From positions 1 to 46,363 of the forward strand of contig JAESTE010000117.1 in NCBI GenBank assembly GCA_016763735.1: a DNA stretch of 46,363 nucleotides, in the 5' to 3' direction. Shown here piece after piece: positions 1,085-28,847 of this stretch; positions within the stretch are counted from its first letter, which is position 1, and every line of letters starts with the position of its first letter. A program made the position numbers and the translations under genes. The DNA comes from Nitrospinaceae bacterium. Lineage in GTDB: Bacteria; Nitrospinota; Nitrospinia; Nitrospinales; VA-1. Under the pieces are notes generated by a model that saw nothing but the letters and a program-made list of their open reading frames with translations, was not told the origin of the DNA and searched no databases.

Positions 1085-4000
1085 TCAGGTGGACACCGCC
1101 GTTGTCCGGTGAGTCAGTAATTTAGAACTGGCCGAATCACTGGCTACAGGGTTGGGCTCTGCGCGAGGAGTCGGCGCAGGGTGTAGTTTGCGGTGGGCAC
1201 TACGCACAATCGCGTTGACGCCGAACAAAATACCAATGATGGCCCCGATCACCAACAACCCGCCTGCTCCGTAGTAGACCCATCGAGGGATGCCGTACAG
1301 CGGCTTGGTGGGGGCCGAAGTAGGGGCAGGGGTAGGTGCACTGGTGTTGGGGACCACCAGAGGGATCGTCACCGCTGCGATCGTAACGTTGCTGGTGTTG
1401 CACAGGTCGCCGATCCAGAACTCTTCGCACACACACGTCTCCAGGTCCGGGCGACTCACTGTGTGGTACCTGTCACACGCCTTGACGCATATCATGCTGT
1501 TGATGTACTTGCCCACGTTGGTGACTGGATCCGTCTCGTTTTCTCCGTCCACCCCCAGGGGATGCGCCACATCCGAGTACACGACTGACAGGAAGTCCGC
1601 CCGGTTGCACCCACACGTCGTCGGGTTGAGGTTGCCGTACAACACCACGGTCGCCTTGGTGGTGGCCTGAGGCTCCAAGGGGTGGGCCATCAGGGAACAG
1701 TTCACCAGAGTACAGTCGCTTGACATGTCGTAGTACGGTGGGGCACACACACACTTGCTGACAGTGGTGGTGGCCAAGGTGAAGGCCGCATCCGTGTCGT
1801 TGCCGCTGACGCTTCCGGTCAACAACAGGTCGTGGAACGCCAGCATCTCCACGTGTACCATCTCCTGTCGGGCATGTGGGGGCAACCCAGTGGACGCACA
1901 CACGCCGGTCAAGCACGTGGAACCGTTGTGCCCGGCCCAACAGTCGCAGGTCAGCACGTTCGCTGTGCCGACCAGTGTCCCGTTCCCGTTGCAGCCGGTG
2001 AGGGGTGTCACCGTACACTCCCCTGAACAACCGACGGACGCCGGCAACACACATCGCCCAGACGACACGTCGAAGTCGCCCACTCCACCGCAGTTGCAGT
2101 TGTATGTCCATGCGCCAGGGAACAGACATGTCACGCCAGTCGTACCTCCGCAGGGAACGGGGATGATGGGCAAGTCGGCCCCGCAGTGATTAAACCCACA
2201 GGAGGTCCCCGACCATCCAGTGTCACACAGACAATACGACAGTGACGTGGTGCCACTTGGAGCTCCGTAGGTCCCACACGCCGACGTATTGCACAGGTGC
2301 CCGGTCCATCCCGCGTAGCAATCGCATCCCCCGGCACGGACCCCCACACGAGGCGACCCTCCTCCGCACGCCGACACGTCGCACAGCATCCCGGTCCACT
2401 GAGACCCCATGCACGTGCACCCGTGTCCGCTGATCTGCGCCCTTCCGTTGGCAGAACACCTGGTCACGTTGCAGTACAGCCCTTCGTACGCCGCCTCGCA
2501 CACACAGTCCGTTGCCGAGTCGACGTATCTTCCGTGGACTCCGCACGCCTCGATACAATGACGGTACGTGGGGGAGATTGGGTCGGTGTCGCGCATCAAC
2601 GGGTACGTGCAGTTGCACCCGCCTGCTGCATCCGCCAAGGGTGCCGCCCCACCGCTCCGTACACACACGTTGGTGCTGCAGTTCTGTCCCTCTGCCACAG
2701 CATGCAACCACCGAGGTGTACATTGACACTGTGTCCCGTCCCAGTGCTGGCCCGGGGCTGTGCACCGCTTGGTGTCACAGAACGTTCCCGTGTACTGGCA
2801 TGGTTTGCCCCCTTGTTGGGGACACGACGCAGTATTGCAGGTCAACCCGTCGGTACTCTCTGCGCAGTGCATGCAATGGGGCTTGCACGCACCCAGACCG
2901 TCGGTGATCCAGTTCATGTTGGTGTGGGTGAAGGGGTTGATGGCCGGGGCGTACAATCCGCCCACCACGCCGCAGGTGCAGGTTGGCACCACCATCAGAC
3001 TGGGCTGGGAGGGGGCCCCGTCACATCGGCTGTACTCCCTCTGCCCTGTGATCACGAACCCACCACACTCGATCGACCCCGGCATGAGGGTGGACAGCGG
3101 GCACGCCGAACGGCAGCCGCGGTAGGGAAACACTGGCTTTCCATCTGTTGCCAACAACGAGAACGAGTCTGGGTACGGTACCGCCCGGTCGCCAGCCCCG
3201 CTGCAGTTGCAACCACTGGGGAGCAACGAAAGCCCGCCTGACTCGACGCAACGGTTGCGTGCGCAGTATTGCCCCCCCAACTTGTTGATAAAGAACGGAC
3301 GACATGTGCACTCGTCATTGGCGCAATGCCCCCCCACCAAGTCACAGTTCCCGCCACAGGCCTGAAGGTGTTGGCACACCACTCCGTTGTATCCGTGCGA
3401 GCAGGAACATTGGTACCGCGACTGGCCATTCAAGATGCATTCTCCGTGGTTGGAACACACGGTCAGGTTTCCGGCCAGGGCGCACGCCGACGCCGGGGTT
3501 TCGCATCTGTCTCCCACGTACGCTTGTCCGCCAGCCACGATACATTCACACTTGCTGCTGGTCGTGTTGCAATGTCCTGTTCGCAGAACGCCTTGCCCCC
3601 GTGCCGAACACGGCATGAAGGACGGCCCGCCACACGGCGAGTTCTGACACGTATCTCCGGTGGTCTTGAAATAAGTGTTGCACCTGCAGTACGGCCTTCC
3701 GTTGCGGTTTGTACACCCTGCCAGCGTGTCGGTGTCACAGCCCTTAGGGATGCAGACCCCTCGGTTGGAACACCAACTGTTCTGCGTGGGGTTCACACAC
3801 GAACCCGTGTAGGTGTTCTGGCACGTGGTCCCCCAGAACCCGTCGGCGCGATGGGTGGTAGTCGGTGGGCCCACCTGGTTCAACCAACACTCACACGTGG
3901 GGTCGGCCACGTCTCGGTTGCACACGTTCTCCCCAATACGGGAATGCCCGCCCTGTCGAATCAGCAACCCTTGGCACTCCTTTCCGTTCGGGCCATGGAC

Positions 4001-6295
4001 ACACGAGCGATCGTTGCACAACCCGTTTGTGCCCTCCTGCCACTTGGGATGGTCGCATGTGCAATTTCCGTATGCACACGCACTGGTGTCCACATACGTC
4101 TGCTGAGGATTGACGTACAACCCACCGTGACAATGGTGGGTGATCACCCGGAAGAACCCACTGTTACAACTGACGGACGGTGCGTTGCTGAAGGCATGGT
4201 CACAACAATCTCCTCCCCCACTCACGATCCCGCCGAGCCGGTTGCACAGGTGTATACACGACTCAGGTGCCGAAAGGGCCGTGTGCAGGGTCACCGTCAC
4301 GTTTGGACACTCCTTTGACAAACACGTGCCATGTGGACCACACGCGGTGTGGTGGTGTTGCGGGTCTCTTGGGCACAACTCCACCGAGCAGTCACCGTTA
4401 CTCCCGCCCCATCCCTCCGCGCACACACATCGACCCACGTAGTCTGAACTCCACGGTACGGGTGGGAGATCCTTCTTAGGGCCGATAGCGATCGCGCGGC
4501 CTCCCAGCAAATGGTTGCATGTGCCGCGGCCCGCGTGTGCGCCACACTCCTTCCCCCCTGGAACCAGGAGATCGGCGGCGGAGATTGGGCACCACCGTTT
4601 GCTGCATACGGCCCCGGCCCACCCGACCTCGCATACGCACCGCACGCTAGGTGTATACGCCAGACCCCGCGAGTAGGACTGGGCTTGGACCACGGGATTT
4701 GTATCGACACACCCGACGGTGTGTCCAGTGTGGCAGGACGGACACGGGATGCACATAAGTCCTCCACGCAGCTTGAGGGTGAACGGCTTGTTTGGTGTTG
4801 TCCGGTTCGAACACCCGTAGGGCATCACTGGCACACTGGGGTTCGTTGCGTCCAGTACGTACCGCTCGTCGAGTAAGTCCCCGTCGTACAGTGCACACTG
4901 ATGGTAGCTGGGGTACTTCAGCCAGTTGCGGCTTTTGTGGACCTTGAACGTACTAGGCGGGGCGTTGGTATTGTTGGTGCACAAGAAGATCGACGCATAC
5001 AGGTCAGTGGAGGGGATGCCGTCGGTGTCGTCCTTCTCTGTTCCACCGAAGAACCCTGGACGGCACACACATGTAACCCCAACTCCGGTCGACTTCTGGA
5101 TGCAGGTCCCGCGTCGGCCACACAGGTCGTATACGTTGGGGTCTGGACACACTATGTCCACGGCCGGGTCAAATCCGGTGGGGAACGATTGGTTGCAAAA
5201 CACACCGCCGAATCCGTTCTCACACAGGCACTGACCAGAGTTGACAAATACACCGTGGTTGCACAACCCGTCATGTGCGACCACAAATTGTGGGGTGTAC
5301 CCGTGCAGAACGTGGACACCGCCGACAATAAAGGGTGCTATGCTGGCGATGTGCACGTTCGGGGCGCACCACAGCTTGTGGGGAAACTCGGCACTGTTGC
5401 ACGTCGCGCCTCGGCCCAGTGTTAACCCGCGAGCAAGTCCCGCCCCATAACACAATTTGGCATACCCTCCTGGCAGGTAGAAGAACGGAGAGATCCACAT
5501 CTGTTCCCACTCAGGCATGAAGTACCCATGGTAGGTCGAATCCTGTGCGACTGTGCCGACGTTGGAGAGCGGGGCTGACTGGTTCGAACCTTGTCCCCAG
5601 ATCCCGCCTGGTGACTGGACCGCAATCGTGGAGTCCTTGACTTTGCACACGTATTGACTGGGCTTGAACCCAATGAAGGTGGCCCACGGGGCGTTCGTAG
5701 CCAGTGCAATATTCACCGCTGCGTTGTACGGCCTTGAACCGGCACCTCTGAGTTGCATCGTGGTTAGGCGAGACCGTGCGGTTGTGGGAGACTTCTCAGC
5801 ATTCCCGGCCGTGTTAAAGTTCTCAAATGAGGGACATGCGTCGTTTGCGGCCCCGCCGTACGTCTTCCTGTGCGCGGCTTGGGCCAACCAGGTTTGGAGG
5901 CTGATCTTGTGAGGGGTGGTGCGGGTGACGAGGAGGGGTATGTTACGATCATGGTGTGTGTCCACCGACTCGGCGTACATATGGTCGTTGAACCCGGCGA
6001 ATATGAGGGGAGTAGCCCACTTGTACTTGAAATTGAACCAGCCCCGGTAACCTGGTTGGTACCCCAGCTCTTCCTCGGTTGACAAGACAGTGATACCAGA
6101 CCGACCTTCCCACACACCTCCTGGGGGCGTGAACGATGTGAGGGCGGCGTTGCCCTGGAACGTGATGGACTTGTATGTCTTCCGGTCCCACCAGCACAGG
6201 CGGCAGTTCCCGTGGTCGTAGTCCCCTGCGAGCGCCACACAGCAGAGGGTTGCCCCCACCAGTGCCCAGAGCATCCTGGACGCCGAAGAGGTCAT
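1085..6295 (-). CDS. Giant EGF-like-repeat type I membrane glycoprotein (~1736 aa)
   Basis: Uninterrupted 5.2-kb ORF. The track start at 6316 is GTG; the first ATG at 6295 gives a signal-like MTSSASRMLWALVGATLCCVALA. There are at least 11 EGF signatures of the form C-x-C-x2-x-[FWY]-x-G-x2-C (CLCENGFGGVFC, CVCEVGWAGAVC, CSCSHGYNGVVC, CDCYAGWTGHLC, CLCDTGWSGTSC, CDCWAGHNGSTC and others). The C-terminus has a P/T-rich stalk, the TM segment WVYYGAGGLLVIGAIIGILFGVNAIV and a short tail. Confidence 0.85.
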   Translation of the reverse strand: MTSSASRMLWALVGATLCCVALAGDYDHGNCRLCWWDRKTYKSITFQGNAALTSFTPPGGVWEGRSGITVLSTEEELGYQPGYRGWFNFKYKWATPLIFAGFNDHMYAESVDTHHDRNIPLLVTRTTPHKISLQTWLAQAAHRKTYGGAANDACPSFENFNTAGNAEKSPTTARSRLTTMQLRGAGSRPYNAAVNIALATNAPWATFIGFKPSQYVCKVKDSTIAVQSPGGIWGQGSNQSAPLSNVGTVAQDSTYHGYFMPEWEQMWISPFFYLPGGYAKLCYGAGLARGLTLGRGATCNSAEFPHKLWCAPNVHIASIAPFIVGGVHVLHGYTPQFVVAHDGLCNHGVFVNSGQCLCENGFGGVFCNQSFPTGFDPAVDIVCPDPNVYDLCGRRGTCIQKSTGVGVTCVCRPGFFGGTEKDDTDGIPSTDLYASIFLCTNNTNAPPSTFKVHKSRNWLKYPSYHQCALYDGDLLDERYVLDATNPSVPVMPYGCSNRTTPNKPFTLKLRGGLMCIPCPSCHTGHTVGCVDTNPVVQAQSYSRGLAYTPSVRCVCEVGWAGAVCSKRWCPISAADLLVPGGKECGAHAGRGTCNHLLGGRAIAIGPKKDLPPVPWSSDYVGRCVCAEGWGGSNGDCSVELCPRDPQHHHTACGPHGTCLSKECPNVTVTLHTALSAPESCIHLCNRLGGIVSGGGDCCDHAFSNAPSVSCNSGFFRVITHHCHGGLYVNPQQTYVDTSACAYGNCTCDHPKWQEGTNGLCNDRSCVHGPNGKECQGLLIRQGGHSRIGENVCNRDVADPTCECWLNQVGPPTTTHRADGFWGTTCQNTYTGSCVNPTQNSWCSNRGVCIPKGCDTDTLAGCTNRNGRPYCRCNTYFKTTGDTCQNSPCGGPSFMPCSARGQGVLRTGHCNTTSSKCECIVAGGQAYVGDRCETPASACALAGNLTVCSNHGECILNGQSRYQCSCSHGYNGVVCQHLQACGGNCDLVGGHCANDECTCRPFFINKLGGQYCARNRCVESGGLSLLPSGCNCSGAGDRAVPYPDSFSLLATDGKPVFPYRGCRSACPLSTLMPGSIECGGFVITGQREYSRCDGAPSQPSLMVVPTCTCGVVGGLYAPAINPFTHTNMNWITDGLGACKPHCMHCAESTDGLTCNTASCPQQGGKPCQYTGTFCDTKRCTAPGQHWDGTQCQCTPRWLHAVAEGQNCSTNVCVRSGGAAPLADAAGGCNCTYPLMRDTDPISPTYRHCIEACGVHGRYVDSATDCVCEAAYEGLYCNVTRCSANGRAQISGHGCTCMGSQWTGMLCDVSACGGGSPRVGVRAGGCDCYAGWTGHLCNTSACGTYGAPSGTTSLSYCLCDTGWSGTSCGFNHCGADLPIIPVPCGGTTGVTCLFPGAWTYNCNCGGVGDFDVSSGRCVLPASVGCSGECTVTPLTGCNGNGTLVGTANVLTCDCWAGHNGSTCLTGVCASTGLPPHARQEMVHVEMLAFHDLLLTGSVSGNDTDAAFTLATTTVSKCVCAPPYYDMSSDCTLVNCSLMAHPLEPQATTKATVVLYGNLNPTTCGCNRADFLSVVYSDVAHPLGVDGENETDPVTNVGKYINSMICVKACDRYHTVSRPDLETCVCEEFWIGDLCNTSNVTIAAVTIPLVVPNTSAPTPAPTSAPTKPLYGIPRWVYYGAGGLLVIGAIIGILFGVNAIVRSAHRKLHPAPTPRAEPNPVASDSASSKLLTHRTTAVST

Positions 6296-7444: not shown

Positions 7445-8623
7445 CTAGCGTTTTAATTGAGCCAGCCACCCACACCGTACAGTAGGGGCACCACGGAACC
7501 GCCACGCACACAGCCTCCTCCACTTGGCTCGCCGACTCATGAACCTTTGGGGGTCCTTGCCGTAGACAATGCAGGCCAGTTCGTGCGCCATCTTGATGGG
7601 CACGCGGTACGTACACGAACCCCTCCCCCCTGGTACCGGGTACTTCGTCCAGGCCACCGGCAACGAACGTAACGCGTCGTCGGGTAAGCTGTACACCTTT
7701 TGAGCGTTGTCGCTGTTCATCCATTCCGTGCACCGGCCACACAAAGCCGCGTTGTTCAGGCCCCAGTTGGTGAGGCACTGGATGCACCTCTTCGTCAAGG
7801 TAAAGACAATGCACTCAAACGGAGTCCTGTCCCCGTCGCGTCGACAGATGATGCCCCACCGAGGGTCGACACGGAGCACCTTGTGCAGAGGCTTGCAGGT
7901 CCAGGCCAGCGCCAACAGTTCGTCGTTCTGTAGGAACTGCCCCACTCCATGTGCCCACACACTAATAGGCAGCTGAGGCAAGTCAACACGTGCCAACAAC
8001 TCAAAACCTTGGTTTTCCTGGGCCCACGCATCGTTGTGTATGCGTTCACGTGCCAAACGAGCCAGGTCATCCACTGCGTTGGTGCGGGCCTCTTCTGTGT
8101 GCAGGAAATCTCCCATCTCCGTCTGGATCAACTTCACCTCTTGCTGGAGGTGCAATACTCGAGGCATCAATACGGTCTCAATGTCAGTGGTGCAACGGCG
8201 GTCCTCTTCGTCAAAGTCAAACTTTCGATCCGCGACCTCGCGCCGGTCCGCACACCGCTCTGCCCGATTACGGCGGGGGGGAAAGCTCAAATTTTCCTTG
8301 TACCGCCTCCTTTCGGTGTGGCGGTAGTTGGTCCGGTTCATGAAGGCGACGTCCGCCAAACCATAAATATGTTCCCTGGTGTTGGCGAGTTCTGTGCCCA
8401 TCGTGTTGGCCCGGGCTTGCATCGCGTCGTACTGTGTCTTGAACCACTCCGGGGCCTCGAAGTACACCGACATGGTCCACCACGCGTTCTCTCTGTCACC
8501 TTTCTCTAACAAGTCATCGCCCCCGAATGCATTGTCCGCGAACGAGAAAGGGCGTCTCCCGAGGTTGGGGTACAGGTCGTGTTCGTGTATGACGGGTCGT
8601 TGGGGTGTCTTACGTGCAGCCAT
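7445..8623 (-). CDS. F-box-like protein with C-terminal CxxC zinc ribbon
   Basis: The track start at 8638 is GTG; the first ATG is at 8623. The F-box-like segment is LPQLPISVWAHGVGQFLQNDELLALAWTCKPLHKVL. It is followed by C-IQ-C-x11-C-GR-C. A palindromic TTTATAAA box sits at 8662-8669, upstream. Confidence 0.65.
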   Translation of the reverse strand: MAARKTPQRPVIHEHDLYPNLGRRPFSFADNAFGGDDLLEKGDRENAWWTMSVYFEAPEWFKTQYDAMQARANTMGTELANTREHIYGLADVAFMNRTNYRHTERRRYKENLSFPPRRNRAERCADRREVADRKFDFDEEDRRCTTDIETVLMPRVLHLQQEVKLIQTEMGDFLHTEEARTNAVDDLARLARERIHNDAWAQENQGFELLARVDLPQLPISVWAHGVGQFLQNDELLALAWTCKPLHKVLRVDPRWGIICRRDGDRTPFECIVFTLTKRCIQCLTNWGLNNAALCGRCTEWMNSDNAQKVYSLPDDALRSLPVAWTKYPVPGGRGSCTYRVPIKMAHELACIVYGKDPQRFMSRRAKWRRLCAWRFRGAPTVRCGWLAQLKR

Positions 8624-10569: not shown

Positions 10570-11943
10570 CTACGAAGCGGTCTTGATCTTCTTGGTCCCC
10601 TTCTCCAGTCTGGCCTTGGTTCGCTTGGCCAGCCTGCGTCGGAACCGCACCACACGTGCGTCGATCTTGACGAGACACGGTTCACAGTAATCACTGTCAC
10701 TGTCCTCGTCGTCCGCCTTCGGTGGATACAAACTCATGTCCATGTCACACTCCGAACACGATCGACGGATGTGCTTGCGCTTGGGGGCCCGGGCCTTGGC
10801 CGCGTCCTCTACTTCCTGGAGCTTGGTGGTATGGGCCCTGCGGAACCTCTGCTTGAGATCGAGTTGAGCAGCCGCGATCCGCTCTTGCGTTTCCACTCTC
10901 GCCATGGTGCACCCAATACAGTAGTCCTTGTTGATGTCGGCGCGTTGTGGCGGCGGGTAGAACTTCATGTCCGTCTCGCAGCCCGCACACCACCGGTTGG
11001 TCTCTAACTTGGCCTCTATGTCTGCCATAGCCGCCACGTGTTTGAGGACGTCGCGTTTGGTCCTCTCCTTGACCTCCAGGTCTACCCTATCCGCCACGCG
11101 CTTGAGCATGTCGTCCTCGTCCTCGTCCTCCTCGAACGCGTCGTCCGGTATGTCCTCGGCCTCTTCGTCCTTCTTGTTGTCCTTCGCGCGCTTGGCGTCC
11201 AAGGCGTCTGCGGCGTCCATGCGATCCTTGACGACTTTGGCGTCGCGTTTCTTGGCACATGTATAGCACAGCTCCTCACACTCGTCGTCTGGTACGTCGC
11301 AGATGTGCGCGTCGCACTGGAAACACTTGTCGCACTGTTTGCACCACTCGTCCCCACATCGTGCGCAGACACCTCTCAGACACGATTCACAGACCATGTG
11401 TTTCTTGTCGCATTGGATGTTGTTCACCGTGTCGTTGTAGACTCCACAGTATTCGCATATGGGGTTGCCGTCCTTGTCGTCGGGTATGGCGCAGAATGTA
11501 CACAGGTCCACATCGTCTGCGTCGCAGACGTGCAAGCCACACTTGGCACACGTGTTGCACGAGGCACACCACGTGTCCGAACAACGTGTGCATTCTCCCT
11601 TCACGCAGGCCTCGCAGACCATGTGTTGTTCGGTGCACTCGGTGTCGCAAACCGACCTGTTGCGCACGCCGCAGTGGTCGCAGAGGTCGTTGTCAGCGTT
11701 CTCGTAAGCACGTTGTTCGGCGCAGTCGTGGCAGCGGTTGTATATTTCGGCAAGTTTCGCCTTGTAGTAACCGACTTGGTCTGTCAAGCACTTGACCAAC
11801 TTGTCGTCGTCCGGGACGTTGGTGAACCCCGCGTCTTCCAAGTCCTGTTCTATGTGGTCGGTGCCTATCTCAACCCACGTCGTAAGGATCTCCAGGGCAG
11901 AGGACTGGGACAAGTGGGGCAGTATCTTGGTAGGGTTTGACAT
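10570..11943 (-). CDS. Cysteine-rich protein with two tandem RING-HC-like fingers and two C-terminal zinc ribbons (GYTNVP family, paralogue 1)
   Basis: The start was moved from 12315 to ATG 11943 (MSNPTKILPHL...), because the track's N-terminal 124 aa run through the GTCGAC cluster and the palindrome arm. It has the conserved DLEDAGFTNVP box. There are two copies of C-x2-C-x11-C-x3-H-x2-C-x2-C-x4-C-x2-C, each followed by W-C-x2-C-x2-C-x2-C. An acidic coiled region comes next, then two copies of C-x2-C...DYC-x2-C. Confidence 0.75.
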   Translation of the reverse strand: MSNPTKILPHLSQSSALEILTTWVEIGTDHIEQDLEDAGFTNVPDDDKLVKCLTDQVGYYKAKLAEIYNRCHDCAEQRAYENADNDLCDHCGVRNRSVCDTECTEQHMVCEACVKGECTRCSDTWCASCNTCAKCGLHVCDADDVDLCTFCAIPDDKDGNPICEYCGVYNDTVNNIQCDKKHMVCESCLRGVCARCGDEWCKQCDKCFQCDAHICDVPDDECEELCYTCAKKRDAKVVKDRMDAADALDAKRAKDNKKDEEAEDIPDDAFEEDEDEDDMLKRVADRVDLEVKERTKRDVLKHVAAMADIEAKLETNRWCAGCETDMKFYPPPQRADINKDYCIGCTMARVETQERIAAAQLDLKQRFRRAHTTKLQEVEDAAKARAPKRKHIRRSCSECDMDMSLYPPKADDEDSDSDYCEPCLVKIDARVVRFRRRLAKRTKARLEKGTKKIKTAS

Positions 11944-11979
11944 GGCGAATGACTTTGTGTGGTTGTTTGACAACGAGCA

Positions 11980-12027
11980 GTCGACACCCGAGTCGACGTC
12001 CGAGTTGAAGTCGACTTGAGAGTCGAC
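11980..12027. promoter_or_regulatory. GTCGAC-box cluster 1 (4 copies)
   Basis: Exact GTCGAC at 11980, 11992, 12010 and 12022. The cluster lies 37-84 nt upstream of the minus-strand ATG at 11943. Confidence 0.7.
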
Positions 12028-12089
12028 ACGGATATAATAAAAATGTACCGCCACTGATGATACAAATCCACGCGCCCATACTCTCGAGG

Positions 12090-12470
12090 ATTTCGCCGAG
12101 GTTGGAAAAGTCAAGGTTTGGTCGAAGGTTTCGAAAACTTCAGAACGCGGTCCCTGAGTGATTCCAACAGCAAACGGTTTGGAGTCGACCAGATGAAAAC
12201 GTGACTTTTTCACTTTCTGAAATACTTGAAACTTGGAAGTATTTCTGAAGTATTGGTCAAGTATTTCGTACTTTCCCTCGAGAGACTTGACAAAAACTTG
12301 AGAAATACTTGACAAAAACTTGAGAAATACTTTGTACCGAGATTTTCCTGAAGTCCAATCGAGAGGGGGGGTAGGGTCTTGTTCCCCCCTAACCGATCGG
12401 CATCAAATCGGTGAATAAAAGATGTTCACCATTTGTGACAAAATAAATTAACCGATATGTCAGACTTTGT
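12090..12470. repeat. Left arm of ~1-kb imperfect palindrome
   Basis: The reverse complement aligns with 12632-13005. The core 12322-12400 is ~78/79 identical to 12703-12781, including matching G7/C7 and C6/G6 runs. The outer and inner parts are more diverged. The arm contains GAAATACTT/AAGTATTTC iterons at 12219, 12237, 12259, 12302 and 12324. Confidence 0.85.
12286..12329. repeat. 2 x 22-bp tandem direct repeat (CTTGACAAAAACTTGAGAAATA)
   Basis: Exact adjacent copies at 12286-12307 and 12308-12329, inside the left palindrome arm. Confidence 0.9.
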
Positions 12471-12631
12471 TACGGTAGTAGTAGAGTAGTGCAATGGGTT
12501 AGACATCCTAGACCCCCCCCCATCCTGTACAAAATTTGGGTATTAATCCAGACTAGTCTAGTCCTACTGCGCAAGGTACCATTCAAACATCCACCCGACT
12601 ATCCTGCAAACGTGAACCATACAATAGGTGT

Positions 12632-13005
12632 CACAGTTCCTGACATATCGGTTAATTGATTGTCTTCACGAACGTTGAACTTGTATATTCACCGAAAACC
12701 TACCGGTCGGTTAGGGGGGAACAAGACCCTACCCCCCCTCTCGATTGGACTTCAGGAAAATCTCGGTACAAAGTATTTCTCAAGTATTTCTCAAGTATTT
12801 TCATACTTTTCAACAAGTCCTTCGAGGGAAAACTACAAAATACTTCAGAAATACTTAAGGTTTTCAAGTTTCTGATCAGGTGAAAAAGTATCGATTTCAT
12901 CCGAGGGCTTACAAAACGTTTGCTGTTGGATCGTATCAGGGACGTGTGTTTGGTGGGTTTTGAAATCCTACTGGAAGACCTTGACTTTTCCAACCTCTGC
13001 GAAAT
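12632..13005. repeat. Right arm of ~1-kb imperfect palindrome
   Basis: This is the inverted partner of 12090-12470. It carries iterons at 12771, 12782 and 12848, plus degenerate copies. TTAACCGATATGTCAG (left) is matched by CTGACATATCGGTTAA (right). Confidence 0.85.
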
Positions 13006-13072
13006 TTCCCGCAAGTCTTCCCCAGGTTTCGGCACCCTGGATTGGAACCGGCTGAACCCGAGGGCAGGAGTG

Positions 13073-13122
13073 GTCGACTAAGACGGACAAGAGTCGAAAA
13101 GTCGACATGTCGAAAAGTCGAC
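13073..13122. promoter_or_regulatory. GTCGAC-box cluster 2 (3 copies + 1 near copy)
   Basis: Exact GTCGAC at 13073, 13101 and 13117, with GTCGAA at 13093. The 22-mer GTCGACATGTCGAAAAGTCGAC is identical to 26851-26872. The cluster is upstream of the H3-like gene. Confidence 0.7.
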
Positions 13123-13229
13123 CTCCTTCCCCGGACGACTTGGCTCTCTGCACCCCGACCTGGGGGTCAACAACCTCTGGGGGACACAGTTTGAGGCTTT
13201 CTGAGGTAGTGGTGACTGCGTTCGTTACC

Positions 13230-13868
13230 ATGGCACGTACCAAGCAATCCCGTTCCTCTGCCACCAAAGACAAGGCTGCACTCCCCAAACTCAAGGGCCA
13301 CAAGGCCGGTCCGTCTGGAAAGGTCACGCGTTCGACAATCAAAGGGCCCAAGAAGGGGGCCGGGGGCAAAGGCAAGTCGGGCAAGGTCCAACACTACCGT
13401 CAACCGGGTGATGTGGCGCACGCCAAGGTCAAGGGTTTGGCCCCAGGCGAACCCCAGCCACGTCGCACCAAGGACGGGTTCCTCTTCCGCAAACCGCGCT
13501 CGCACCCGGGCCAGAGGGCCAAGCGGTTCATCAAGAAGCTCCAGATGAGTGTGTTGCCGGTCTCCAGCATGGCCGGGGCACGTCGAGCCTTTGTGGGCGG
13601 GCTGGTGCGCATCAACGCACTGAACATGCGCGTGAGCCGCAGCGCCATGGCCACCGCACAGGAAGCCGTGGAGATGATCTTCCACACCATCGCCACCGAC
13701 GCGTTGTTGACCACTGTGGCCCGAGGACAGAAGACCCTGTCGGTAGGCGACCTGGAGTTGGCCTTCATGCGGTACTCGAGGTCGGGTCAAGGCACCAACA
13801 TGGTGTGGCAAGAGTACCAGTCGCTCAACCCGGACGGCACGTCACTCCAACTGCGTGCGTTGAGTTGA
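13230..13868 (+). CDS. Histone H3-like protein (212 aa)
   Basis: The start was moved to ATG 13230, giving N-terminal MARTKQS (H3 has ARTKQT). VQHYRQPGDVA parallels H3 KPHRYRPGTVA. RVSRSAMATAQEAVEMIFHTIATDALLTTVARGQKTLSVGDLELAFMRY parallels H3 [50 protein letters not shown]. Confidence 0.75.
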   Translation: MARTKQSRSSATKDKAALPKLKGHKAGPSGKVTRSTIKGPKKGAGGKGKSGKVQHYRQPGDVAHAKVKGLAPGEPQPRRTKDGFLFRKPRSHPGQRAKRFIKKLQMSVLPVSSMAGARRAFVGGLVRINALNMRVSRSAMATAQEAVEMIFHTIATDALLTTVARGQKTLSVGDLELAFMRYSRSGQGTNMVWQEYQSLNPDGTSLQLRALS

Positions 13869-13958
13869 TCCAACTTGGGTTGTGACTTGGAACCCCCCGC
13901 CAGTATGAGTACAGCTATAAACACCTATTTGAATTGTACCTGTTGTGTGAGTGCCAAC

Positions 13959-14516
13959 ATGCCGACGGCACGTTTGGCGGACCGAGACGTGGGGTGGAAA
14001 GACAAAATACGGTGCGACCTGGCGCATTCTGAAGTGGTGGACGACCGAGACGTGGCGCAGTTGTGTTCCCGCTTGAAACGGGTGCTGGTGTGGCACGCCA
14101 AAGACCATCTGTTGTTGCGGGGCCATTGCCAACTGGCCGAGTCGCCGAACAAGTCAACCGACGGCTGGATATGGATCATCATCCCGTGCACACGACAAGA
14201 CAAGCAAGACGTGTGGGTGTTGCGCACGCGTCGGTCCGTGACTCAACGCATGGACACAGACGACGTGCGTACGTGCACCCACCTGCAAAACAATCGGTTG
14301 TGGATGTGGATGGTCTTGTTCGCCTGGGGAGTCCACCGTCTACAAGAAACCTTTCGGGTGGCGCCCGATTCACCTGACGCACGGCTGTTGTGGCTGTGGT
14401 CTCAAAACGCCCACAACAACGGGCTGGACTTGGTGCGGTGGGTGCGTAGGTGTTGCGGGGTACTGGCCCGCACACTAGACGTCCTGTGTTCCGTCGACCG
14501 TGGAGCTGTGGCATGA
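13959..14516 (+). CDS. Hypothetical Trp-rich protein (185 aa)
   Basis: The first plausible ATG is at 13959, preceded by TATAAACA at 13916-13923. No motif recognised. Confidence 0.5.
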   Translation: MPTARLADRDVGWKDKIRCDLAHSEVVDDRDVAQLCSRLKRVLVWHAKDHLLLRGHCQLAESPNKSTDGWIWIIIPCTRQDKQDVWVLRTRRSVTQRMDTDDVRTCTHLQNNRLWMWMVLFAWGVHRLQETFRVAPDSPDARLLWLWSQNAHNNGLDLVRWVRRCCGVLARTLDVLCSVDRGAVA

Positions 14517-14586
14517 CCAGTAACTGAATGGATTTGTACATACCCACTCATGTCTCCCCTTCGTGTATAAAGATTGATCAAGCAGC

Positions 14587-15933
14587 ATGTCGCGCGCTAC
14601 CGTACAGAAACGGTTCACTGACTACATCACGCAACAGACCCCGCCCGCACGCACCGATGAAGTCGCCGGGTCCACCGAGGCCAAGAACGGCATGCACTCG
14701 GCCATGCGCGCCCTGAGCTCCAAGCAACGGTACCGCTCCCACTTCGCCGACGCCACCGAGAAGGTGGCCGATGCCTTGTTCGAGAAACACCCCGCCCTCA
14801 AGGCCTGTAGCGACGGCACCTGGGGCAAGTACTGCCAGTACACCCTGTTCTCGTGTCTGGACGAGACGTACCTGCCCCTCCTGGAGGAGGCCGCCAACGA
14901 CATTGACCACAAGGCACACACCGAGGCCGTGGTCATGATCAACTCCATCAAGTTCTTAGAATGCCAGCTGAAGGAGATATGGGAAGCCTTGATCACCACC
15001 TTCACCGACTCTGCGCCCCAGTTCGCCCTGTTGTGCAGCTTTGCCCGCGAGTGCTACGTGATCCGTGCCTCCGACGCACCCATCACCACAGCAGAGACCA
15101 AGCAAGGAGTCAAGGGCATGTTCACCGGGTCCAACAAGAGCAAGGACTTGTTCCGAGTCTACTTCATCCAGGACGAGGCCGAACGTCTGGCCTTTGACCG
15201 GTCGGTACGCAAGGGAAACCTGGGCATCCTGAAGAGCCATCGTCTCAAACACGCCGCGTCACGTCGCGAGTGGAAGAAGCGGGTGGAGGCCGGGACGCAT
15301 CCCGTCAAGTCCAAGAAAGGACGCAAGAGAGAGCGCCAGAAGAACAACGGCAAGGAGGCCAAGGACCAGAAGGTCCCCTCCAAAGACGACGACGAACCGT
15401 CGGTGGGAGACGGGTGTTGGATACTTGAGCGAGGTGTGCAGCCTCTGGCCGAGGCCGTGTACGCAGTCTTCCATCGTGAAGAACGTATCCGAGAGGAGAT
15501 AGTCAACGTACTGGAGCGTATCGTGGTCACCCCCGCAGGACTGGCCGACCAACACGCCGCCATTCAGCGCATGGCAGTGGACTCGGCCAGCTTCCCTACC
15601 CTGGCCATGCGTACGGCCTTGCAAGACTACCGTCAACAACTGTGGGTGGTGCTGATGTTCCTCCACGACAAGGAGATCCACAACGCGTTTCGTGCCTTGG
15701 TGACCAAAGACACCCCCGAGAACGAACGCGAAGCTATCATGAAGGAGGCCATCCGAGCCATCCTGCCCGACTCGGCACGTGACGACGAACCTATCCCGCG
15801 TGAGTGTGCCCCCACCCCGCAACCCCAGCCAGTGCAGGTGACTCCTGTGGTCAACAACGTGCCCAAGGCCGAAGACTGTACCGGTGCTGCCGGAGCGGAG
15901 AAGGACGCACTTGAATCAGACCAAGACGAGTAA
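14587..15933 (+). CDS. Hypothetical protein (448 aa) with central basic NLS-like stretch
   Basis: ATG ORF with protein-like composition. It contains KKRVEAGTHPVKSKKGRKRERQKNNGKEAK. TATAAA at 14566-14571 is only 16 nt upstream, so the true start could be the internal Met at 14692. No P-loop is present, so this is not the missing terminase exon. Confidence 0.65.
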   Translation: MSRATVQKRFTDYITQQTPPARTDEVAGSTEAKNGMHSAMRALSSKQRYRSHFADATEKVADALFEKHPALKACSDGTWGKYCQYTLFSCLDETYLPLLEEAANDIDHKAHTEAVVMINSIKFLECQLKEIWEALITTFTDSAPQFALLCSFARECYVIRASDAPITTAETKQGVKGMFTGSNKSKDLFRVYFIQDEAERLAFDRSVRKGNLGILKSHRLKHAASRREWKKRVEAGTHPVKSKKGRKRERQKNNGKEAKDQKVPSKDDDEPSVGDGCWILERGVQPLAEAVYAVFHREERIREEIVNVLERIVVTPAGLADQHAAIQRMAVDSASFPTLAMRTALQDYRQQLWVVLMFLHDKEIHNAFRALVTKDTPENEREAIMKEAIRAILPDSARDDEPIPRECAPTPQPQPVQVTPVVNNVPKAEDCTGAAGAEKDALESDQDE

Positions 15934-15948
15934 CACATACAGTCTTCA

Positions 15949-18900
15949 TTACATCACGTATCGAGTCATTTGTTTCTGCCGGTCTAAACGGCGTCTGTTG
16001 TTCAGCGCACTACGGTCTCTCTGTGCAAACAGTAGCGCTTGTTGTTCTTTGCACATCGTGGTGAAGGCTGTGATGCAGAGGATGGTGTCTGCGCGGGTCA
16101 TGGGGTGGCACTGCCTGATGTAGTCGGCCTGGGCACGGGTGTGGTGCTTGGTGCACACCAGGACGCCATGTGGGTAGATGAAGCAACGACGTTGAGGCAC
16201 CAACTCACGGGTACAGAAGGTGCATTGATGGGTCACGTGCCCGGTCTTGGTGAGTTCAGGGATCACCCGTCGCTGGGCCGCACGCACCGCACGTCGGGTC
16301 TGGGTGCACACCGTACAGATGTAGCCAAAACTAGTGTAGTCGCAGTGGTCCGGGTGGTAGACCATGGGCAGGCCGCACCCCGGGAAAGGACACAGCATGA
16401 TCACCCGTCCGTTCCATTGCAGGAGCCGGCCCAACAAGAACACTTCGCACAGGGGTTGACTGGAACATCGCATGTGCCCGCGTATCCGGTCCATCTTGCA
16501 GAACCTCTCGCCTGTGACGTAGTCCATGACAATGCCGTTGTACCCAAAGACGTTGTTGGGGTTGCGCTTGGAGATGGACGTCATGATAGACTGGGAGTCT
16601 TCGTGGGCCACCAACCCTCCCATGCCGTCAATCAAGGACGCGCCGGCCGGGTCGTCTACTATGGGAGGCATGGCCAGGTCCACTTCCGGCACCGGTGCGT
16701 CTGCGTTGCGGCGTACCCGGCGTGTCTTGCCCTTGGCACTGGACATGGGTTGACGCAACAACGAGTAGACTTGCTGGCACACCTGGCAGTAGTGGAACCG
16801 GGTACGTCCTTGTGCCAGGAAACGAGGCACACGGGTCAGCCCCAGCTTCAATTGAATGGCCTTGATCTGGTTGGTGATGTAATGGTCAGGCAGCTCGTAG
16901 GTGATGCACTGGCTGTGTTCGGTCCAGAACAAGCAGGTGACTTGCAGCAAGTAGAAGGAGTAGGGGAAGCGGTGACGGAATGCCTCGAGCCGGGTGCGCA
17001 AGGCTCGCTTGCCCATGCGGTACATGTCGTACTCCTGCACCAAGTCTTGCATGGACAACAATGCGGTAGGGGACGCGCCCAGGTCAGTTAGAAGAGGGAA
17101 CACGTCACGATGCAACACCGTGTCCACTTGGTCGTAGTGTCCCAGCCACGCGTACAAGTACTTCATGGACGACACCGTCATGGAAGGGATGTCGTCGGGG
17201 CGGAAGGGGTCGGTGTCGGGCCGAGTGCGCAGATCAAAGCGACCCGACTTGCCACGCTGGCAGGTGTGCAAGAAGGACGTCAAGGGGATACGTTGCCGTT
17301 GGTAGCAGTGCTTGAGGATGGCGTCCCGGGCCCCGATGCAGGCCCCATGGATCTTGTCGCGCAAGTCGTTGTCCCACAACTGAGTGATCTTTTTGGATTT
17401 GTTGCGCACCAGCCACTCTTCAGGGGAGGCTTCGGACAGCAGGGTGCGTACCGTCACCAAGGTCTCTTCCACCACGCGTGCGAACCCGGTCCAGTCACAC
17501 AGCAGACGCACGTGGCTGGCGAACACCGGGTCGTCGTTGATGGCCCACACCAAGGCTCGACGCATGGCAAAGGTCGTCAACCATTGACACTTCATGACCA
17601 CCTCGTCCAGCAACTCGGGTTGTTCAATGCTGATCTTCCGCAGCCTGTCTCGGCACACCAAGGGCAGCTGGAACTCTACTGGTGTACTAGGGTACTGCCC
17701 TGTCAACCCGGCCAGGATGATCTGACGGAGCAGCTCTCTGTTGCGGGGTCTGTTGCGTACGAACCGCTTGCACATGTTGGCGAACATGCGGGTTTGGCAA
17801 GGTTGCGGGGTGACCTTGGAGAGGATGTGTACCAAGGGTGCCACAGTGCCGGGCCGTAGTTGGAACCAGAAGCAACACTGGTGGGCGGCGCTGCGGATGT
17901 CGATGGCAAAGTGTTCAGGGGTACACAGTTGTTTGGCCAGGGCTTGGCCCAGAGGGGAGTGGACACAGTCGTGGCGTGCGCCGTACGCCATGTCGTGCAG
18001 GAGTCCCGCCAGATGGCGCATGCGAGGGGCGCATTTCTCGTCTGCCACCACTTCGTCCAATATTTCAAGACACTTGGCCCAGTGTTGTCGTCCACGTAAC
18101 TCTTGGTCGAGTCCAAACGCGTTGTGAGGGTTGTGTGCGTAGAGTTGGGAACCGTATTCGCGCAGCAAGGCAAGGTGGGGGCAATGGAGCTCACGTATCA
18201 ACCGAAGTCGCGTGGGTTCTTCTGCCGCCACCCGTTCCTCATGGGCCTTGCTGCGCCGATGAAAATCCTGATAACGTTCACCGGTCTGTGGTTGGAGCGT
18301 GGGTTCTTCACGGTACACCATGCTCGACTGGTCAATGACCCAGCGTCCGCCTTGCTCGGGGTCGCGGTACGCCCTCAATTGAGAGTAGAGGTACGAGGCC
18401 ATGCTGTCCACCAGCCCTTCGTACCGACTGGCAGAGGGCTGGAACGTGTAGGCTCCAAAGTACCCGCCCTTGTCGTTGCGCAGGTTGCGGTACAGCTGGC
18501 ACACGAACGTGGTGTTGACTCCGTTGAGGCGGCGGTAGTTGGGGCGCAGACTCAAGATGAAGTGGGTCACGTGCACCCGGCAGCACAAGATACAGGGACG
18601 ACGTTCACGCGGAGCTACTCCGGCTTCCATGAAGATCTGGTACTCTTCGGGGAACATGAGGGAAGTCAACACCACGCCACCACTGTGTTCGGGGAACCCC
18701 ATCAGTTGGTGTGTGCGCCCGGCACAGTTTTCTCCACGCGAACAGGCCGGGAAGGTGTAGGTACGGGGCGGGCCCTTCTGCATCTGGACGACATGGGTGC
18801 CGGCTTCGGCCAGGAGCTGCGACTCGAAGTCTGCGGTGAGGATGGGCAGCATGACCCGGCGTTGGTTGATGAGATACTTGACCTCGTCGCTGGTCAGGTT

Positions 18901-28211: not shown

Positions 28212-28248
28212 GTCGACTCGAGTCGACAGTCGTGAAACATGGCGTCGA
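28212..28248. promoter_or_regulatory. GTCGAC-box cluster 5 (3 copies)
   Basis: Exact GTCGAC at 28212, 28222 and 28243. 28212-28227 is a perfect 16-bp palindrome, GTCGACTCGAGTCGAC. The cluster lies between divergent starts at 28204 (-) and 28239 (+). Confidence 0.65.
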
Positions 28249-28847
28249 CTTCTTCCTCGTCGGGGGACGTCCAGCCCAGCAACCAGGTGCGGTGCGTGTT
28301 CAGCGTGGAGCTGCCTGCCGGGAACGAAGCCTTGGCCGACTTGCAGAAACACGCCATGTGGCGATACTTCTGCTTGGAAGACCGGCCCGAGGTGCTGGAC
28401 TACTACGTGGGGATTGCCATCAAGTGCATCCGGAAGGAGTACCCGTCTGTGGTGGGCGAGTTTGTGGCCGTCCTCCGCGGCAACGCAGGCGACACGAACG
28501 TGAACCGTAAATTGTATACATTAATGTCAGCCGTGACCTCGACCAATGGGTTCTACAACTACGTGCGTACCTACAGCAGCAACGACTGGGCCCAGACCAG
28601 CGTGGCGTTGAAACTGCTGGAGACATCCTTCAGGCAGTGGTTTGAAGGGCTGGATGTCAACCACCGGGTGGCCCAGACCCCACGCGACGTACACTTCAAA
28701 CACCTGGACGAGTTCGTGCACGACCATCGGGTGAGGGTGATCACGGGGCAGCTGACCGGGCACGTTTGGCAACCTCCGAACAAGAAGGCTGTGGCTGCGG
28801 CCGTGGTCGAGGCGCCTGCTTCCGCTTCCGACTCTGCGTCCCTGTGA
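28239..28847 (+). CDS. Hypothetical protein (202 aa)
   Basis: ATG ORF with protein-like composition. Its 3' end overlaps the convergent gene 28741..31320 by 107 nt. Confidence 0.6.
   Translation: MASTSSSSGDVQPSNQVRCVFSVELPAGNEALADLQKHAMWRYFCLEDRPEVLDYYVGIAIKCIRKEYPSVVGEFVAVLRGNAGDTNVNRKLYTLMSAVTSTNGFYNYVRTYSSNDWAQTSVALKLLETSFRQWFEGLDVNHRVAQTPRDVHFKHLDEFVHDHRVRVITGQLTGHVWQPPNKKAVAAAVVEAPASASDSASL

Follow-up and report, generated by a model that had tools for sequence, protein, structure and literature searches.

An imperfect, non-coding palindrome of 924 bp (12086–13009) lies between two divergent genes in the window, the whole stretch of 46,363 nucleotides that was analysed, which is a complete 46-kb metagenome contig made of ORFans. 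The element is interpreted as a cis-acting protein-binding module, that is, a candidate dyad-symmetry lytic replication origin or an hr-like (origin/enhancer) element, and this reading is given a probability of about 0.45; the candidate origin possibly doubles as an enhancer in the fashion of a baculovirus hr. Its dyad architecture, the non-uniform conservation of its arms, a private iteron phased at 11 bp and its standing as a lone low-GC island make an origin the most likely reading. The intergenic gap that holds it (11944–13229, 1286 bp) is the largest non-coding stretch of the contig, as the original prediction had it, the runner-up measuring 536 bp.

The left arm (12086–12466) and the right arm (13009–12640) pair as inverted repeats with 77% identity over the 394 columns of a gapped alignment, which confirms the arms predicted at 12090–12470 and 12632–13005 and refines their limits. 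The dyad axis falls at 12547.5–12551.5 (about 12551), in agreement with the proposed symmetry about ∼12552. The 10-bp palindrome AGACTAGTCT, correctly predicted at 12550–12559, is about 3 bp off this axis; palindromes of 10 bp occur at 1.1 per kb, so the chance of one so near the axis is about 1%. Conservation between the arms is strongly non-uniform. The left outer arm (12086–12214, no strand) is mirrored by the right outer arm (12876–13009), the two being 65–80% identical with conserved blocks such as ATTTCGC.GAGGTTGGAAAAGTCAAGGT and TCCAACAGCAAACG. The two core copies of 79 bp (12318–12396 and, in inverted orientation, 12706–12784) are 100% identical; a near-identical core had been described with coordinates about 4 bp away. 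The longest perfect run between the arms is 79 bp, and none of 5000 column permutations gave more than 50; this non-uniformity argues against the neutral decay of a dead insertion. The left core comprises two iterons, TGTACCGAGATTTTCCTGAAGTCCAATCGAGA, a G7 run (12365–12371), TAGGGTCTTGTT and a C6 run (12384–12389). Inwards of the cores lie AT-rich inner arms, of which the left (12397–12466, about 30–38% GC) is a candidate unwinding segment with a 22-nt block at 12442–12463 that is 95% complementary to 12640–12661, and the right (12640–12705) mirrors 12401–12466. They enclose a centre of 173 bp (12467–12639), which is asymmetric, unstructured (fold z = +1.5) and carries a C9 run at 12513–12521.

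The symmetry stops sharply at 12086 and 13009 with unique, differing genes on either side, unlike a hairpin-telomere concatemer junction of the poxvirus, ASFV or chlorovirus type, where it would extend outward into long inverted terminal repeats of identical sequence. From 12747 onward the right arm was reproduced, with one SNP, in an independent assembly, contig L001, which begins at this position within the perfect right core; a break here is expected for a true inverted repeat, and assemblies of the virus break at the element because of the palindrome. For the two genes on the left side, look-ups of the exact proteins returned no record, and the left arm is therefore without an independent assembly. 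The dyad architecture is statistically secure by alignment, folding and permutation.

Both arms contain arrays of a short motif. The 9-mer AAGTATTTC is present in eight exact copies, all within 12219–12856 (0.04 expected; 0 of 100 shuffles), and the exact copies are private to the element within the contig. Of the 16 copies with one mismatch or fewer, 10 fall inside 640 bp. The predicted figure of at least eight exact copies in both orientations was correct, but the degenerate copies in the 11-bp register number two with one mismatch and about seven with two mismatches, rather than three. The iterons are strictly phased at 11 bp. In the left array (12215–12335, 30–35% GC) the AAGTATTTC-type sites are arranged as one on the minus strand, three on the plus strand and five on the minus strand; the right array (12771–12875, 28–35% GC) has three to four on the plus strand, two on the minus strand and then degenerate copies, and each array forms a local sub-palindrome. 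The tandem repeat predicted as 2 × 22 bp at 12286–12329 was recovered inside the left array as a 22-bp unit present 2.2 times and 100% matched (12285–12332). Iteron copy number differs between the arms, and the iteron consensus has been maintained although the arms are 23% diverged overall.

The whole element folds to −277 kcal/mol, compared with −105 ± 6 for shuffles, and the iteron sub-palindromes fold significantly (left z = −5.2, right z = −4.0). The hairpin between the G7 and C6 runs was, however, no better than chance (z = −0.7 and −1.7) and was rejected as a structural signal; the proposal that each core can itself fold was not borne out. Base composition also distinguishes the element, which has 42% GC against about 59–60% for the genome, and 12051–13050 is the sole island of the contig below 47% GC. 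The centre had been proposed as the AT-richer part, but the AT-richest parts are the iteron arrays (28–35% GC) and the inner arms (about 30–38%), and the centre at 12480–12620 has 42–53% GC. GpC is strongly depleted across the element (observed/expected 0.27 vs 0.83), and this peculiar depletion together with the low GC could mark foreign DNA. The element has no credible ORF; only short non-ATG ORFs occur in arm sequence of 40% GC, and the arms were rejected as paralogous inverted small genes on that ground. A tRNA scan of the element found none, an Rfam search found no family at the gathering threshold, and a scan for bacterial-type promoters and terminators, a type of scan not suited to such a virus, gave nothing above shuffles.

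Plus-strand GC skew is negative in all six genes left of the element and positive in 12 of 12 genes at 15.9–33.8 kb, regardless of gene orientation. The cumulative skew reaches its minimum on a plateau at 12.0–16.0 kb, the exact minimum being at 16021, ∼3 kb right of the element. Its range was 819, compared with 459 ± 80 in block permutations (0 of 5000), a small signal for which the breakpoint was picked post hoc.

On sequence grounds the contig is classed as an uncharacterised herpes- or mirus-like virus of a eukaryote, most likely a nuclear dsDNA virus, because it combines a herpes-type terminase with a histone bearing an H3 tail. The terminase matches the PHROG 2 terminase large subunit (E = 5.3e-11). 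In the relatives, only P0013 passes the Pfam cut-off for PF02499 DNA_pack_C (E = 2.6e-6; 27.1 bits vs 22.8), P0004 and P0012 being sub-threshold at 16.6 and 17.3 bits. The right flanking gene (13230–13868, plus strand) encodes the histone, a 212-aa histone-fold protein (PF00125, 3.5e-6; PF00808, 6.7e-5) with an H3-like N-terminal tail (MARTKQS...), and its homologue in the relative L002 likewise begins MARTK. The left flanking gene (10570–11943, minus strand; GC3 0.76) is transcribed away from the element and encodes a 457-aa Cys-rich ORFan with repeated CxxC, acidic and basic, for which there was no Pfam match and no relative in IMG/VR. This protein is, speculatively, a candidate iteron-binding protein; an AlphaFold2 model of it (pLDDT 44.5) was unusable as evidence for a DNA-binder. 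The large neighbouring ORFs gave no Pfam, PHROG or PDB sequence match, searches for relatives of the histone and of a 1000-aa protein returned self-matches only, and phage records gave no blastn match. A 1329-aa protein had no IMG/VR relatives and a metagenome scan with its alignment was also empty; it is Cys/His-rich, has NLS-like basic stretches and belongs to an unannotated family with 663 relatives, and the suggestion that it is a capsid protein was dropped on these grounds. Herpes_ori_bp or any helicase family was detected in none of the 30 ORFs of the contig, and no origin-binding protein or other replication gene was recognisable within the 46 kb.

In the relatives L002 and L010 the syntenic neighbourhood lacks the element. 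Two distant relatives have non-coding palindromic islands of similar architecture, L003 at 17583–17995 and L004 at 2624–2785. The L003 island consists of three ∼130-bp units in alternating orientation. Local alignment scores between the element and these islands were at shuffle level, and an 11-mer that they share, CGAGAGGGGGG, was put down to chance and rejected as homology. The density of palindromic islands in the relatives is about 1 per 40–60 kb, with a different sequence each time. A skew extremum at the L004 island was rejected as independent support, as all genes diverge there and gene orientation accounts for it.

Each flanking gene has a complete promoter outside the element. The promoter/5′ region of the left gene (11944–12085, minus strand) has four [A/T]GTCGAC[A/T] sites at 11980–12027 and a TATAATAAAAA stretch at 12033–12045, and that of the histone gene (13010–13229, plus strand) has an AGTCGA(A/C) array with an 8-bp period at 13073–13122, outside the palindrome. 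These outer GTCGAC clusters had been placed correctly but assigned to the element; since such arrays are found in roughly 10 further gaps of the contig, at gene starts or between divergent genes, and the arm symmetry stops at 12086, they are a generic promoter-proximal motif outside the palindrome. The presence of these promoters bears on the explanation that the element is only an enhancer or shared regulatory platform, its iteron arrays binding a transcription factor for the two divergent genes or for more distant ones, with no role in replication. Enhancers typically contain phased arrays of short motifs in either orientation, and so do baculovirus hrs, which have enhancer activity. The element has such arrays and lies between divergently transcribed genes, and the analogous L003 and L004 islands are also intergenic, the latter between divergent genes. 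Yet both genes already own the standard GTCGAC-array promoter that is used contig-wide, and elsewhere in the contig about 510 bp between genes suffices for every gene pair. In L002 the histone gene is inverted and adjoins the next gene across a 70-bp gap, from which it is expressed without such an element. A purely regulatory role also fails to explain the large-scale dyad, the unwinding-type segments of 30% GC and the orientation-independent skew switch, and is considered unlikely.

A foldback transposon and an enhancer were the alternatives named in the original prediction, and both are weakened. In the former case a degenerate foldback-type or MITE-like element, maybe from a lower-GC host, would have inserted in a divergent promoter region of ∼360 bp. 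Drosophila FB elements have arms of subrepeats around a unique loop, and here arms of 11- and 22-bp subrepeats likewise surround a unique loop without a credible ORF. The outer boundaries are sharp, the terminal block at 12090–12117 being well kept (26 of 28 matches between the arms), the GC content (42% vs 60%) and GpC ratio are foreign, excision would leave both promoters unharmed in a gap of normal length, and L002 and L010 lack the element at the syntenic place. The target-site duplication by which a transposon was to be recognised is, however, lacking, no direct repeat being present at or near 12086/13009, where the flanks read ...CATACTCTCGAGG / element / TTCCCGCAAGTC.... The search for further copies of the 79-bp core, the iteron or the element, which the original prediction had proposed, found none in the window, in ∼120 kb of related contigs or in IMG/VR; the JGI metagenomes also held no copy, but that collection is without this virus altogether. 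Highly non-uniform arm divergence with a maintained iteron consensus is unlike neutral decay, and palindromic islands of other sequence occur in the relatives at a comparably low density. An inserted element is considered improbable.

It is very unlikely that the element represents fused termini or a packaging-cleavage region, with the arms as diverged terminal inverted repeats and cleavage at the centre, or that its 309-bp middle is flipped by recombination between the cores. In the former case the source of the contig would be circular or concatemeric DNA. Packaging of the DNA by a herpes-type terminase would accord with this, as would the breaks made by assemblers at the element. Herpes pac1 is a T-element flanked by C/G runs; the core has a T-rich stretch between G/C runs (G7-TAGGGTCTTGTT-C6), the C9 run lies near the axis and TCCCCGGTTTTTTTTTG, a sequence similar to pac1, is found in the units of the L003 island. 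The arms, however, are just 77% identical around a 173-bp asymmetric centre, unlike terminal repeats copied in replication, and the G/C-run cores are about 165–185 bp from the axis, much farther than the roughly 30–35 bp that separate herpes pac elements from the termini. Iteron arrays are no feature of pac sites, and unique genes continue on both sides without extended symmetry.

A pair of inverted ncRNA or miRNA-precursor-like hairpin genes, from which the iteron sub-palindromes of ∼100–120 nt would be transcribed and processed, is highly improbable: herpesviruses encode miRNAs, some near origins, and the significant folding of the sub-palindromes is accompanied by weak miRNA-precursor matches (best mir-3167, 30.9 bits, E = 0.003), but these Rfam matches are far under gathering scores (30.9 vs 86 bits) and fall on both strands, which indicates a generic hairpin shape and led to their rejection as evidence for an RNA gene, the stems are tandem 11-bp repeats of unequal copy number between the arms, as is typical of binding-site arrays, and no promoter or terminator signal stands out.

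The replication-origin reading gains from the lack of a target-site duplication and of a second copy, from the orientation-independent skew switch at 12–16 kb, from the L003 and L004 islands and from a fitting type of virus, with its herpes-type terminase and H3-like histone. Against it stand the want of UL9-type boxes and of a recognisable replication gene in 46 kb, the absence of the element in L002 and L010, a centre neither AT-rich nor symmetric, a skew minimum ∼3 kb off, and the positive predictive value of just 17–25% with which AT and palindrome signatures predict herpesvirus origins (PMC1904460). UL9/OBP boxes (GTTCGCAC core; (GAG)GGTGGAACG in EEHV) had no match with one mismatch or fewer in 11944–13229, and their counts across the window were at chance (56 vs 61 expected and 18 vs 21 expected). 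The herpesvirus comparison that had been proposed for this locus proved apt in view of the terminase and the histone and of the low-GC dyad island with iterons between divergent genes, the form taken by herpesvirus lytic origins, predicted or proven; it does not extend to UL9-type boxes, an AT-rich centre or the outer GTCGAC clusters.

If the element is an origin, a sequence-specific initiator, viral or host, would bind the AAGTATTTC sites. Sites one helical turn (11 bp) apart would lie on one face of the DNA, and the opposed arrays of each arm would allow cooperative multimeric binding and DNA bending, to which phased A/T tracts would add intrinsic curvature. Loading of both arms would strain the neighbouring AT-rich inner segments of 60–70 bp (about 30–38% GC vs 59% for the genome), and these would melt beside a GC-rich G7/C6 ‘clamp’ and permit bidirectional replisome entry. 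Transcription of the flanking genes would continue from ordinary GTCGAC-array promoters of their own beyond the ends of the element, and selection, or gene conversion between the two arms, would keep the 79-bp core identical.

It is possible, if rather doubtful, that with this element a replication origin has become recognisable for the first time in a mirusvirus-like ‘dark-matter’ lineage; it would have its own iteron, AAGTATTTC, an initiator unlike UL9 and, in the L003 and L004 islands, functional equivalents. Mirusviruses and related viruses infect unicellular eukaryotes, are abundant, have been recognised only recently and form a link between herpesviruses and giant viruses. Mirusvirus-like genomes persist as episomes (PMC12606086, PMC12768974), and in the mirusvirus literature compared, which also served for comparison of virus type (PMC12768974), no replication origin is described for mirusviruses or relatives. 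If this proposal is true, palindromic iteron-based origins between divergent genes would be an ancestral trait of herpesviruses and their protist-infecting relatives, and the avoidance of GpC would point to a further undescribed constraint, such as a need for the origin to evade a methyltransferase or nuclease that targets GpC. The candidate origin offers a private binding motif for DNA-affinity and EMSA work and a sequence signature for spotting equivalent elements in other genomes, and makes it possible to examine whether dyad origins of the herpes type are older than the divergence of these lineages.

The element may be compared with four known systems. With foldback (FB-type) transposons and MITEs it shares long inverted arms of short tandem subrepeats, a unique loop, no coding capacity, sharp and well-kept outer ends and a composition foreign to the surrounding genome; it differs in having no target-site duplication and no second copy found, and in its non-uniform arm conservation and preserved iteron consensus. 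EBV oriP, which serves as a latent origin and in the maintenance of the episome, is similar in its arrays of short protein-binding-type sites (candidate sites here) and dyad arrangement in a nuclear herpes-like genome, but oriP has two modules (FR, 20 × 30 bp; DS, four sites) ∼1 kb apart, whereas the element has mirrored arms, and no EBNA1-like gene was recognised in the contig. The hrs of baculoviruses, nudiviruses and nimaviruses, which serve as origins and enhancers, are likewise AT-richer non-coding islands of short repeats and imperfect palindromes; as with them, a multimeric viral factor presumably binds the element, a dual origin/enhancer logic is plausible and relatives have analogous islands of lineage-specific sequence. 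Unlike hrs, which are dispersed as homologous copies in each genome, the element is single-copy in the 46 kb, only part of the genome being visible, and in place of tandem ∼30-bp palindromes it forms one global 924-bp palindrome in a virus of an unrelated realm. Each arm contains opposed arrays of 11-bp units that form one sub-palindrome, and neither the element nor the L003 units match the canonical hr unit.

Compared with herpesvirus dyad origins, the element lacks UL9/OBP boxes, with no OBP gene in 46 kb, and its iterons are set out in arrays with 11-bp phasing, in place of boxes paired closely head to head. It is far larger than HSV oriS/oriL, and, unlike those origins, it has an asymmetric dyad centre that is not AT-rich, with the AT-rich segments on either side (12401–12466 and 12640–12705). 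Herpesvirus origins are virus-specific in sequence, typically contain clusters of inverted and direct repeats, are AT-richer and often lie between divergent genes (PMC1904460), and a large intergenic palindrome is present in OsHV-1/AVNV (PMC3623871). Like the dyad origins of HSV-1 (oriL/oriS), HHV-6 and EEHV4, the element occupies a non-coding gap in a GC-rich Duplodnaviria genome of a eukaryote, has a large imperfect dyad, several 9–12-bp sites in both orientations and AT-rich and tandem-repeat segments, is hard to assemble and has a virus-specific sequence. The closest herpesvirus example is the Ori-Lyt of EEHV4, a predicted 1.2-kb complex dyad domain with seven copies of a 9–12-bp binding site in a GC-rich genome (PMC4911795).

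The window, a complete metagenome contig of 46,363 bp with 59% GC, carries densely packed genes on both strands. An intergenic gap of 1286 bp separates the ATG of a cysteine-rich 457-aa gene (10570-11943, minus strand) from that of a histone-fold gene (13230-13868, plus strand); it is, as originally noted, the largest in the contig, the second largest non-coding gap being 536 bp. Gapped alignment of the left half with the reverse-complemented right half paired 12086-12466 with 13009-12640 over 394 columns at 77% identity, confirming the proposed inverted-repeat arms; the outer limits of the symmetry are sharp, and three matched blocks set the dyad axis at 12547.5-12551.5. Identity between the arms is very uneven: the outer and inner arms match at 65-80%, and a core at 12318-12396 is the perfect reverse complement of 12706-12784 (79/79 bp). 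When the alignment columns were permuted 5000 times, the longest perfect run was 50. The centre (12467-12639, 173 bp) lacks both symmetry and structure (folding z = +1.5) and includes a C9 run (12513-12521). The 10-bp palindrome AGACTAGTCT, previously noticed near the centre, was located at 12550-12559, ~3 bp off the axis; such palindromes occur at 1.1 per kb in the contig, giving a chance of ~1% for one so near. The predicted single-strand fold of the whole element (12086-13009) was -277 kcal/mol versus -105 +/- 6 for shuffled sequences, while the G7...C6 hairpin pointed out within the cores had a stability at the level expected from composition (z = -0.7 and -1.7). Upstream of the ATG, the frame of the cysteine-rich gene remains free of stop codons for 372 nt (11944-12315, minus strand, with a TTG at 12315), crossing the GTCGAC array and reaching the left arm, which is probably due to chance, given the drop in GC.

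An independent assembly scaffold (ENA assembly TULL18-1_SAMN07571238 scaffold_16518, 3765 bp) covers the right arm and the histone gene and differs from the window by a single SNP. Its start, at window position 12747, falls within the perfect core, which is where a genuine inverted repeat would stop an assembler. Exact-protein look-ups with the genes left of the element yielded no independent record of the left arm; a fold-back chimera is excluded by the 23% divergence between the arms. The element is real, statistically secure and unusual.

The repeated 9-mer of the original prediction, AAGTATTTC, was present in eight exact copies, all within 12219-12856, against an expectation of 0.04, and none of 100 shuffles reached eight. 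Allowing one mismatch, 10 of the 16 matches in the contig fell inside these 640 bp of the element, and the extra copies found with up to two mismatches keep the same 11-bp register. Tandem Repeats Finder reported a period of 11 at 12236-12267, 12285-12332 and 12771-12800, the second of these being a perfect 22-bp x 2.2 repeat. The iterons of the left arm are ordered as one minus, three plus and five minus copies, mirrored in the right arm; the arrays are thus opposed within each arm, giving each its own sub-palindrome, and both sub-palindromes fold significantly (z = -5.2 and -4.0).

The region 12051-13050 is the only island below 47% GC in the contig. GC is lowest in the iteron arrays (28-35%) and the inner arms (about 30-38%), whereas the centre is 42-53% GC, so that the AT-richer centre described earlier was not borne out; the cores are 65% GC. 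GpC is strongly depleted in 12086-13009 (11 observed, 41 +/- 5 expected; observed/expected 0.27, contig median 0.83), is absent from 12171-12399 and 12607-12906, and is scarce in all sub-regions, including the unique centre, while the CpG count is normal (36 versus 41). Homopolymer runs and AT-rich motifs may account for the depletion as a side effect, or it may reflect avoidance of some GpC-containing target. Scans of the element turned up no credible ORF, no tRNA and no Rfam family at gathering threshold. With a motif of its own in opposed arrays phased to the helical turn, overall dyad symmetry and low-stability neighbouring segments, the element has the anatomy of a protein-binding cis-element.

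GTCGAC occurs at 47 sites in the contig, against 23 expected. Arrays of [A/T]GTCGAC[A/T], with 2-7 copies at 8-25-bp spacing, were found at ~10 places besides the flanks of the element, including 7840-7870, 24292-24407, 26851-26887, 28212-28249, 31420-31526, 39576-39633, 43444-43515 and 43916-43947, and nearly all lie at the 5' end of a gene or in a gap between divergent genes. This recurrence identifies a contig-wide promoter-proximal motif, probably a promoter or transcription-factor motif of the virus. It is not similarly enriched in three related metagenome loci (L002-L004). The clusters at 11980-12027 and 13073-13122, originally described at the outer ends of the symmetric gap, are accordingly better read as the flanking genes' own promoters, and what is left without the palindrome is ~360 bp of ordinary intergenic DNA between divergent genes. 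An element serving only as an enhancer is plausible from its position but unlikely, as standard promoters are already present at both flanking genes.

Almost all ORFs in the contig lack a Pfam match. The 428-aa product of 24303-25589 (plus strand) matches PHROG 2 (E = 5.3e-11) and is a terminase large subunit of the herpes type. Only 16 relatives were found, all on unannotated metagenome contigs; one of these, P0013, passes the Pfam cut-off for PF02499 (herpesvirus DNA_pack_C; E = 2.6e-6) and two more score below threshold. The product of 13230-13868 has a divergent histone fold (PF00125, E = 3.5e-6) and an H3-like tail beginning MARTKQS (MARTKQSRSSATKDKAA...); a homologue in L002 (536-3, minus strand) is 33% identical and likewise begins MARTK, while a word-indexed search of 5.8 billion proteins matched nothing beyond the window's own sequence. 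In published descriptions of mirusviruses, GC content spans 25-72%, histones belong to the core functions and ORFans make up ~75% in AurliV-1 (PMC12768974; PMC12606086), and the terminase, the H3-like histone, the ORFan richness and 59% GC together fit these descriptions. On these features the contig is therefore classed as a herpes-/mirus-like virus of a eukaryote, not as a proven mirusvirus.

The 1329-aa protein at 15949-19938 (minus strand) is Cys/His-rich, is basic and NLS-like towards its N-terminus (PLKRKRNP, PRRKRTRR) and is probably not the capsid protein. Its family is unannotated and numbers 663 relatives, 399 of them at E <= 1e-10; some lie on 158-176-kb contigs. Three genes (34270-35058, 35430-37961 and 39780-41099) have common 264-288-nt repeats (34339-34638, 35454-37576 and 39807-40712) encoding ...P.ADG..GQVL.T.GAG.LSW, a motif that recalls the tail-fibre or collar repeats of phages, and one of them weakly matches PHROG 15416. 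Eukaryote-type domains stand out in the otherwise ORFan contig in a 1736-aa protein with EGF/teneurin-like repeats (1085-6295, minus strand) and a 134-aa MORN-repeat protein (33766-34170, minus strand).

The relative L002 (terminase 56-57% identical, 57% by tblastn) is collinear with the window over the terminase block, but its histone gene is inverted and lies 70 bp from the next gene, leaving no palindrome there in the sequence compared, which stops at the histone gene, 961 bp before the contig end. Comparison of L002 1-606 with window 13230-14587 showed that a 203-aa gene (13905-14516) is missing from L002; together with the inversion, this places a rearrangement breakpoint directly beside the palindrome. 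A second locus, L010, retains the terminase, 1000-aa and 1329-aa gene block and then diverges, with neither histone nor palindrome past it, so the element is absent at the corresponding place in both L002 and L010, and L005, L007, L008 and L013 contain no comparable palindromic element. In L003 (terminase 44% identical), a 720-bp non-coding gap holds three ~130-bp units alternating in orientation (17583-17995), which coincide with its only low-GC island and are accompanied by GTCGAC at the ends, by (CA)n/TATA stretches and by TCCCCGGTTTTTTTTTG, which resembles herpes pac1. The L004 island (2624-2785), lying between divergent genes, consists of nested palindromes that carry G6/C5 runs. Neither island has significant sequence in common with the window element. 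Palindromic non-coding islands thus recur in the lineage, at roughly 1 per 40-60 kb sampled, and are lineage-specific in sequence and not conserved in position.

The subrepeat structure of the arms, the sharp ends and the foreign composition could also mark a degenerate foldback or MITE insertion, the transposon alternative raised originally. This is improbable, since no target-site duplication was present at the element ends, no second copy was found in the window, the related loci or IMG/VR, arm conservation is non-uniform and the iteron consensus is maintained. Fused termini, a packaging site or an inversion site would account for G/C runs flanking T-rich stretches and for the pac1-like C4G2T9 motif in L003, but the arms have diverged, the centre is asymmetric and the distances are wrong, making this very unlikely. 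Hairpin RNA genes, suggested only by generic hairpin-shape matches, are the least credible explanation.

A minimum of cumulative skew is a classical signature of bacterial origins. Plus-strand GC skew is negative in all six genes left of the element and positive in 12 of 12 genes at 15.9-33.8 kb, whatever their orientation, and is mixed or negative past ~33.6 kb, with switch points at about 12-16 kb and about 33.6 kb. Cumulative G-C falls to -289 at 12 kb, remains level up to its minimum of -320 at 16,021 and then climbs, reaching +523 at 33.6 kb; the range of the curve, 819, exceeds all 5000 block permutations (459 +/- 80). The skew supports a replication-related polarity switch within 12-16 kb, with the palindrome at its left edge, at poor resolution and with a breakpoint chosen post hoc. 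Skew has been reported as unhelpful for herpesviruses (PMC1904460). The skew maximum beside the L004 palindrome was discarded as support, as it is explained by gene orientation.

The best single explanation would be that the element is a lytic replication origin of dyad symmetry that possibly doubles as an enhancer, a reading to which we assign a probability of about 45%; confidence is limited because, even among herpesviruses, signatures of this kind reach a positive predictive value of just 17-25% (PMC1904460) and because the element is not syntenically conserved. The mirusvirus literature examined describes no replication origin for this lineage, and the element is a reasonable, unproven candidate for one. 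The element contains no OBP boxes, no OBP gene was found among the ORFs of the 46-kb contig and the centre is not AT-rich; membership of the UL9-dependent class is not supported, and the element may at best resemble such an origin in function. Its nearest published counterpart is the Ori-Lyt predicted in EEHV4, a GC-rich herpesvirus: this 1.2-kb domain combines a complex dyad with AT-rich repeats and a 9-12-bp site present seven times, and proved hard to sequence (PMC4911795). The large intergenic palindrome of OsHV-1/AVNV (PMC3623871) provides a second analogue.
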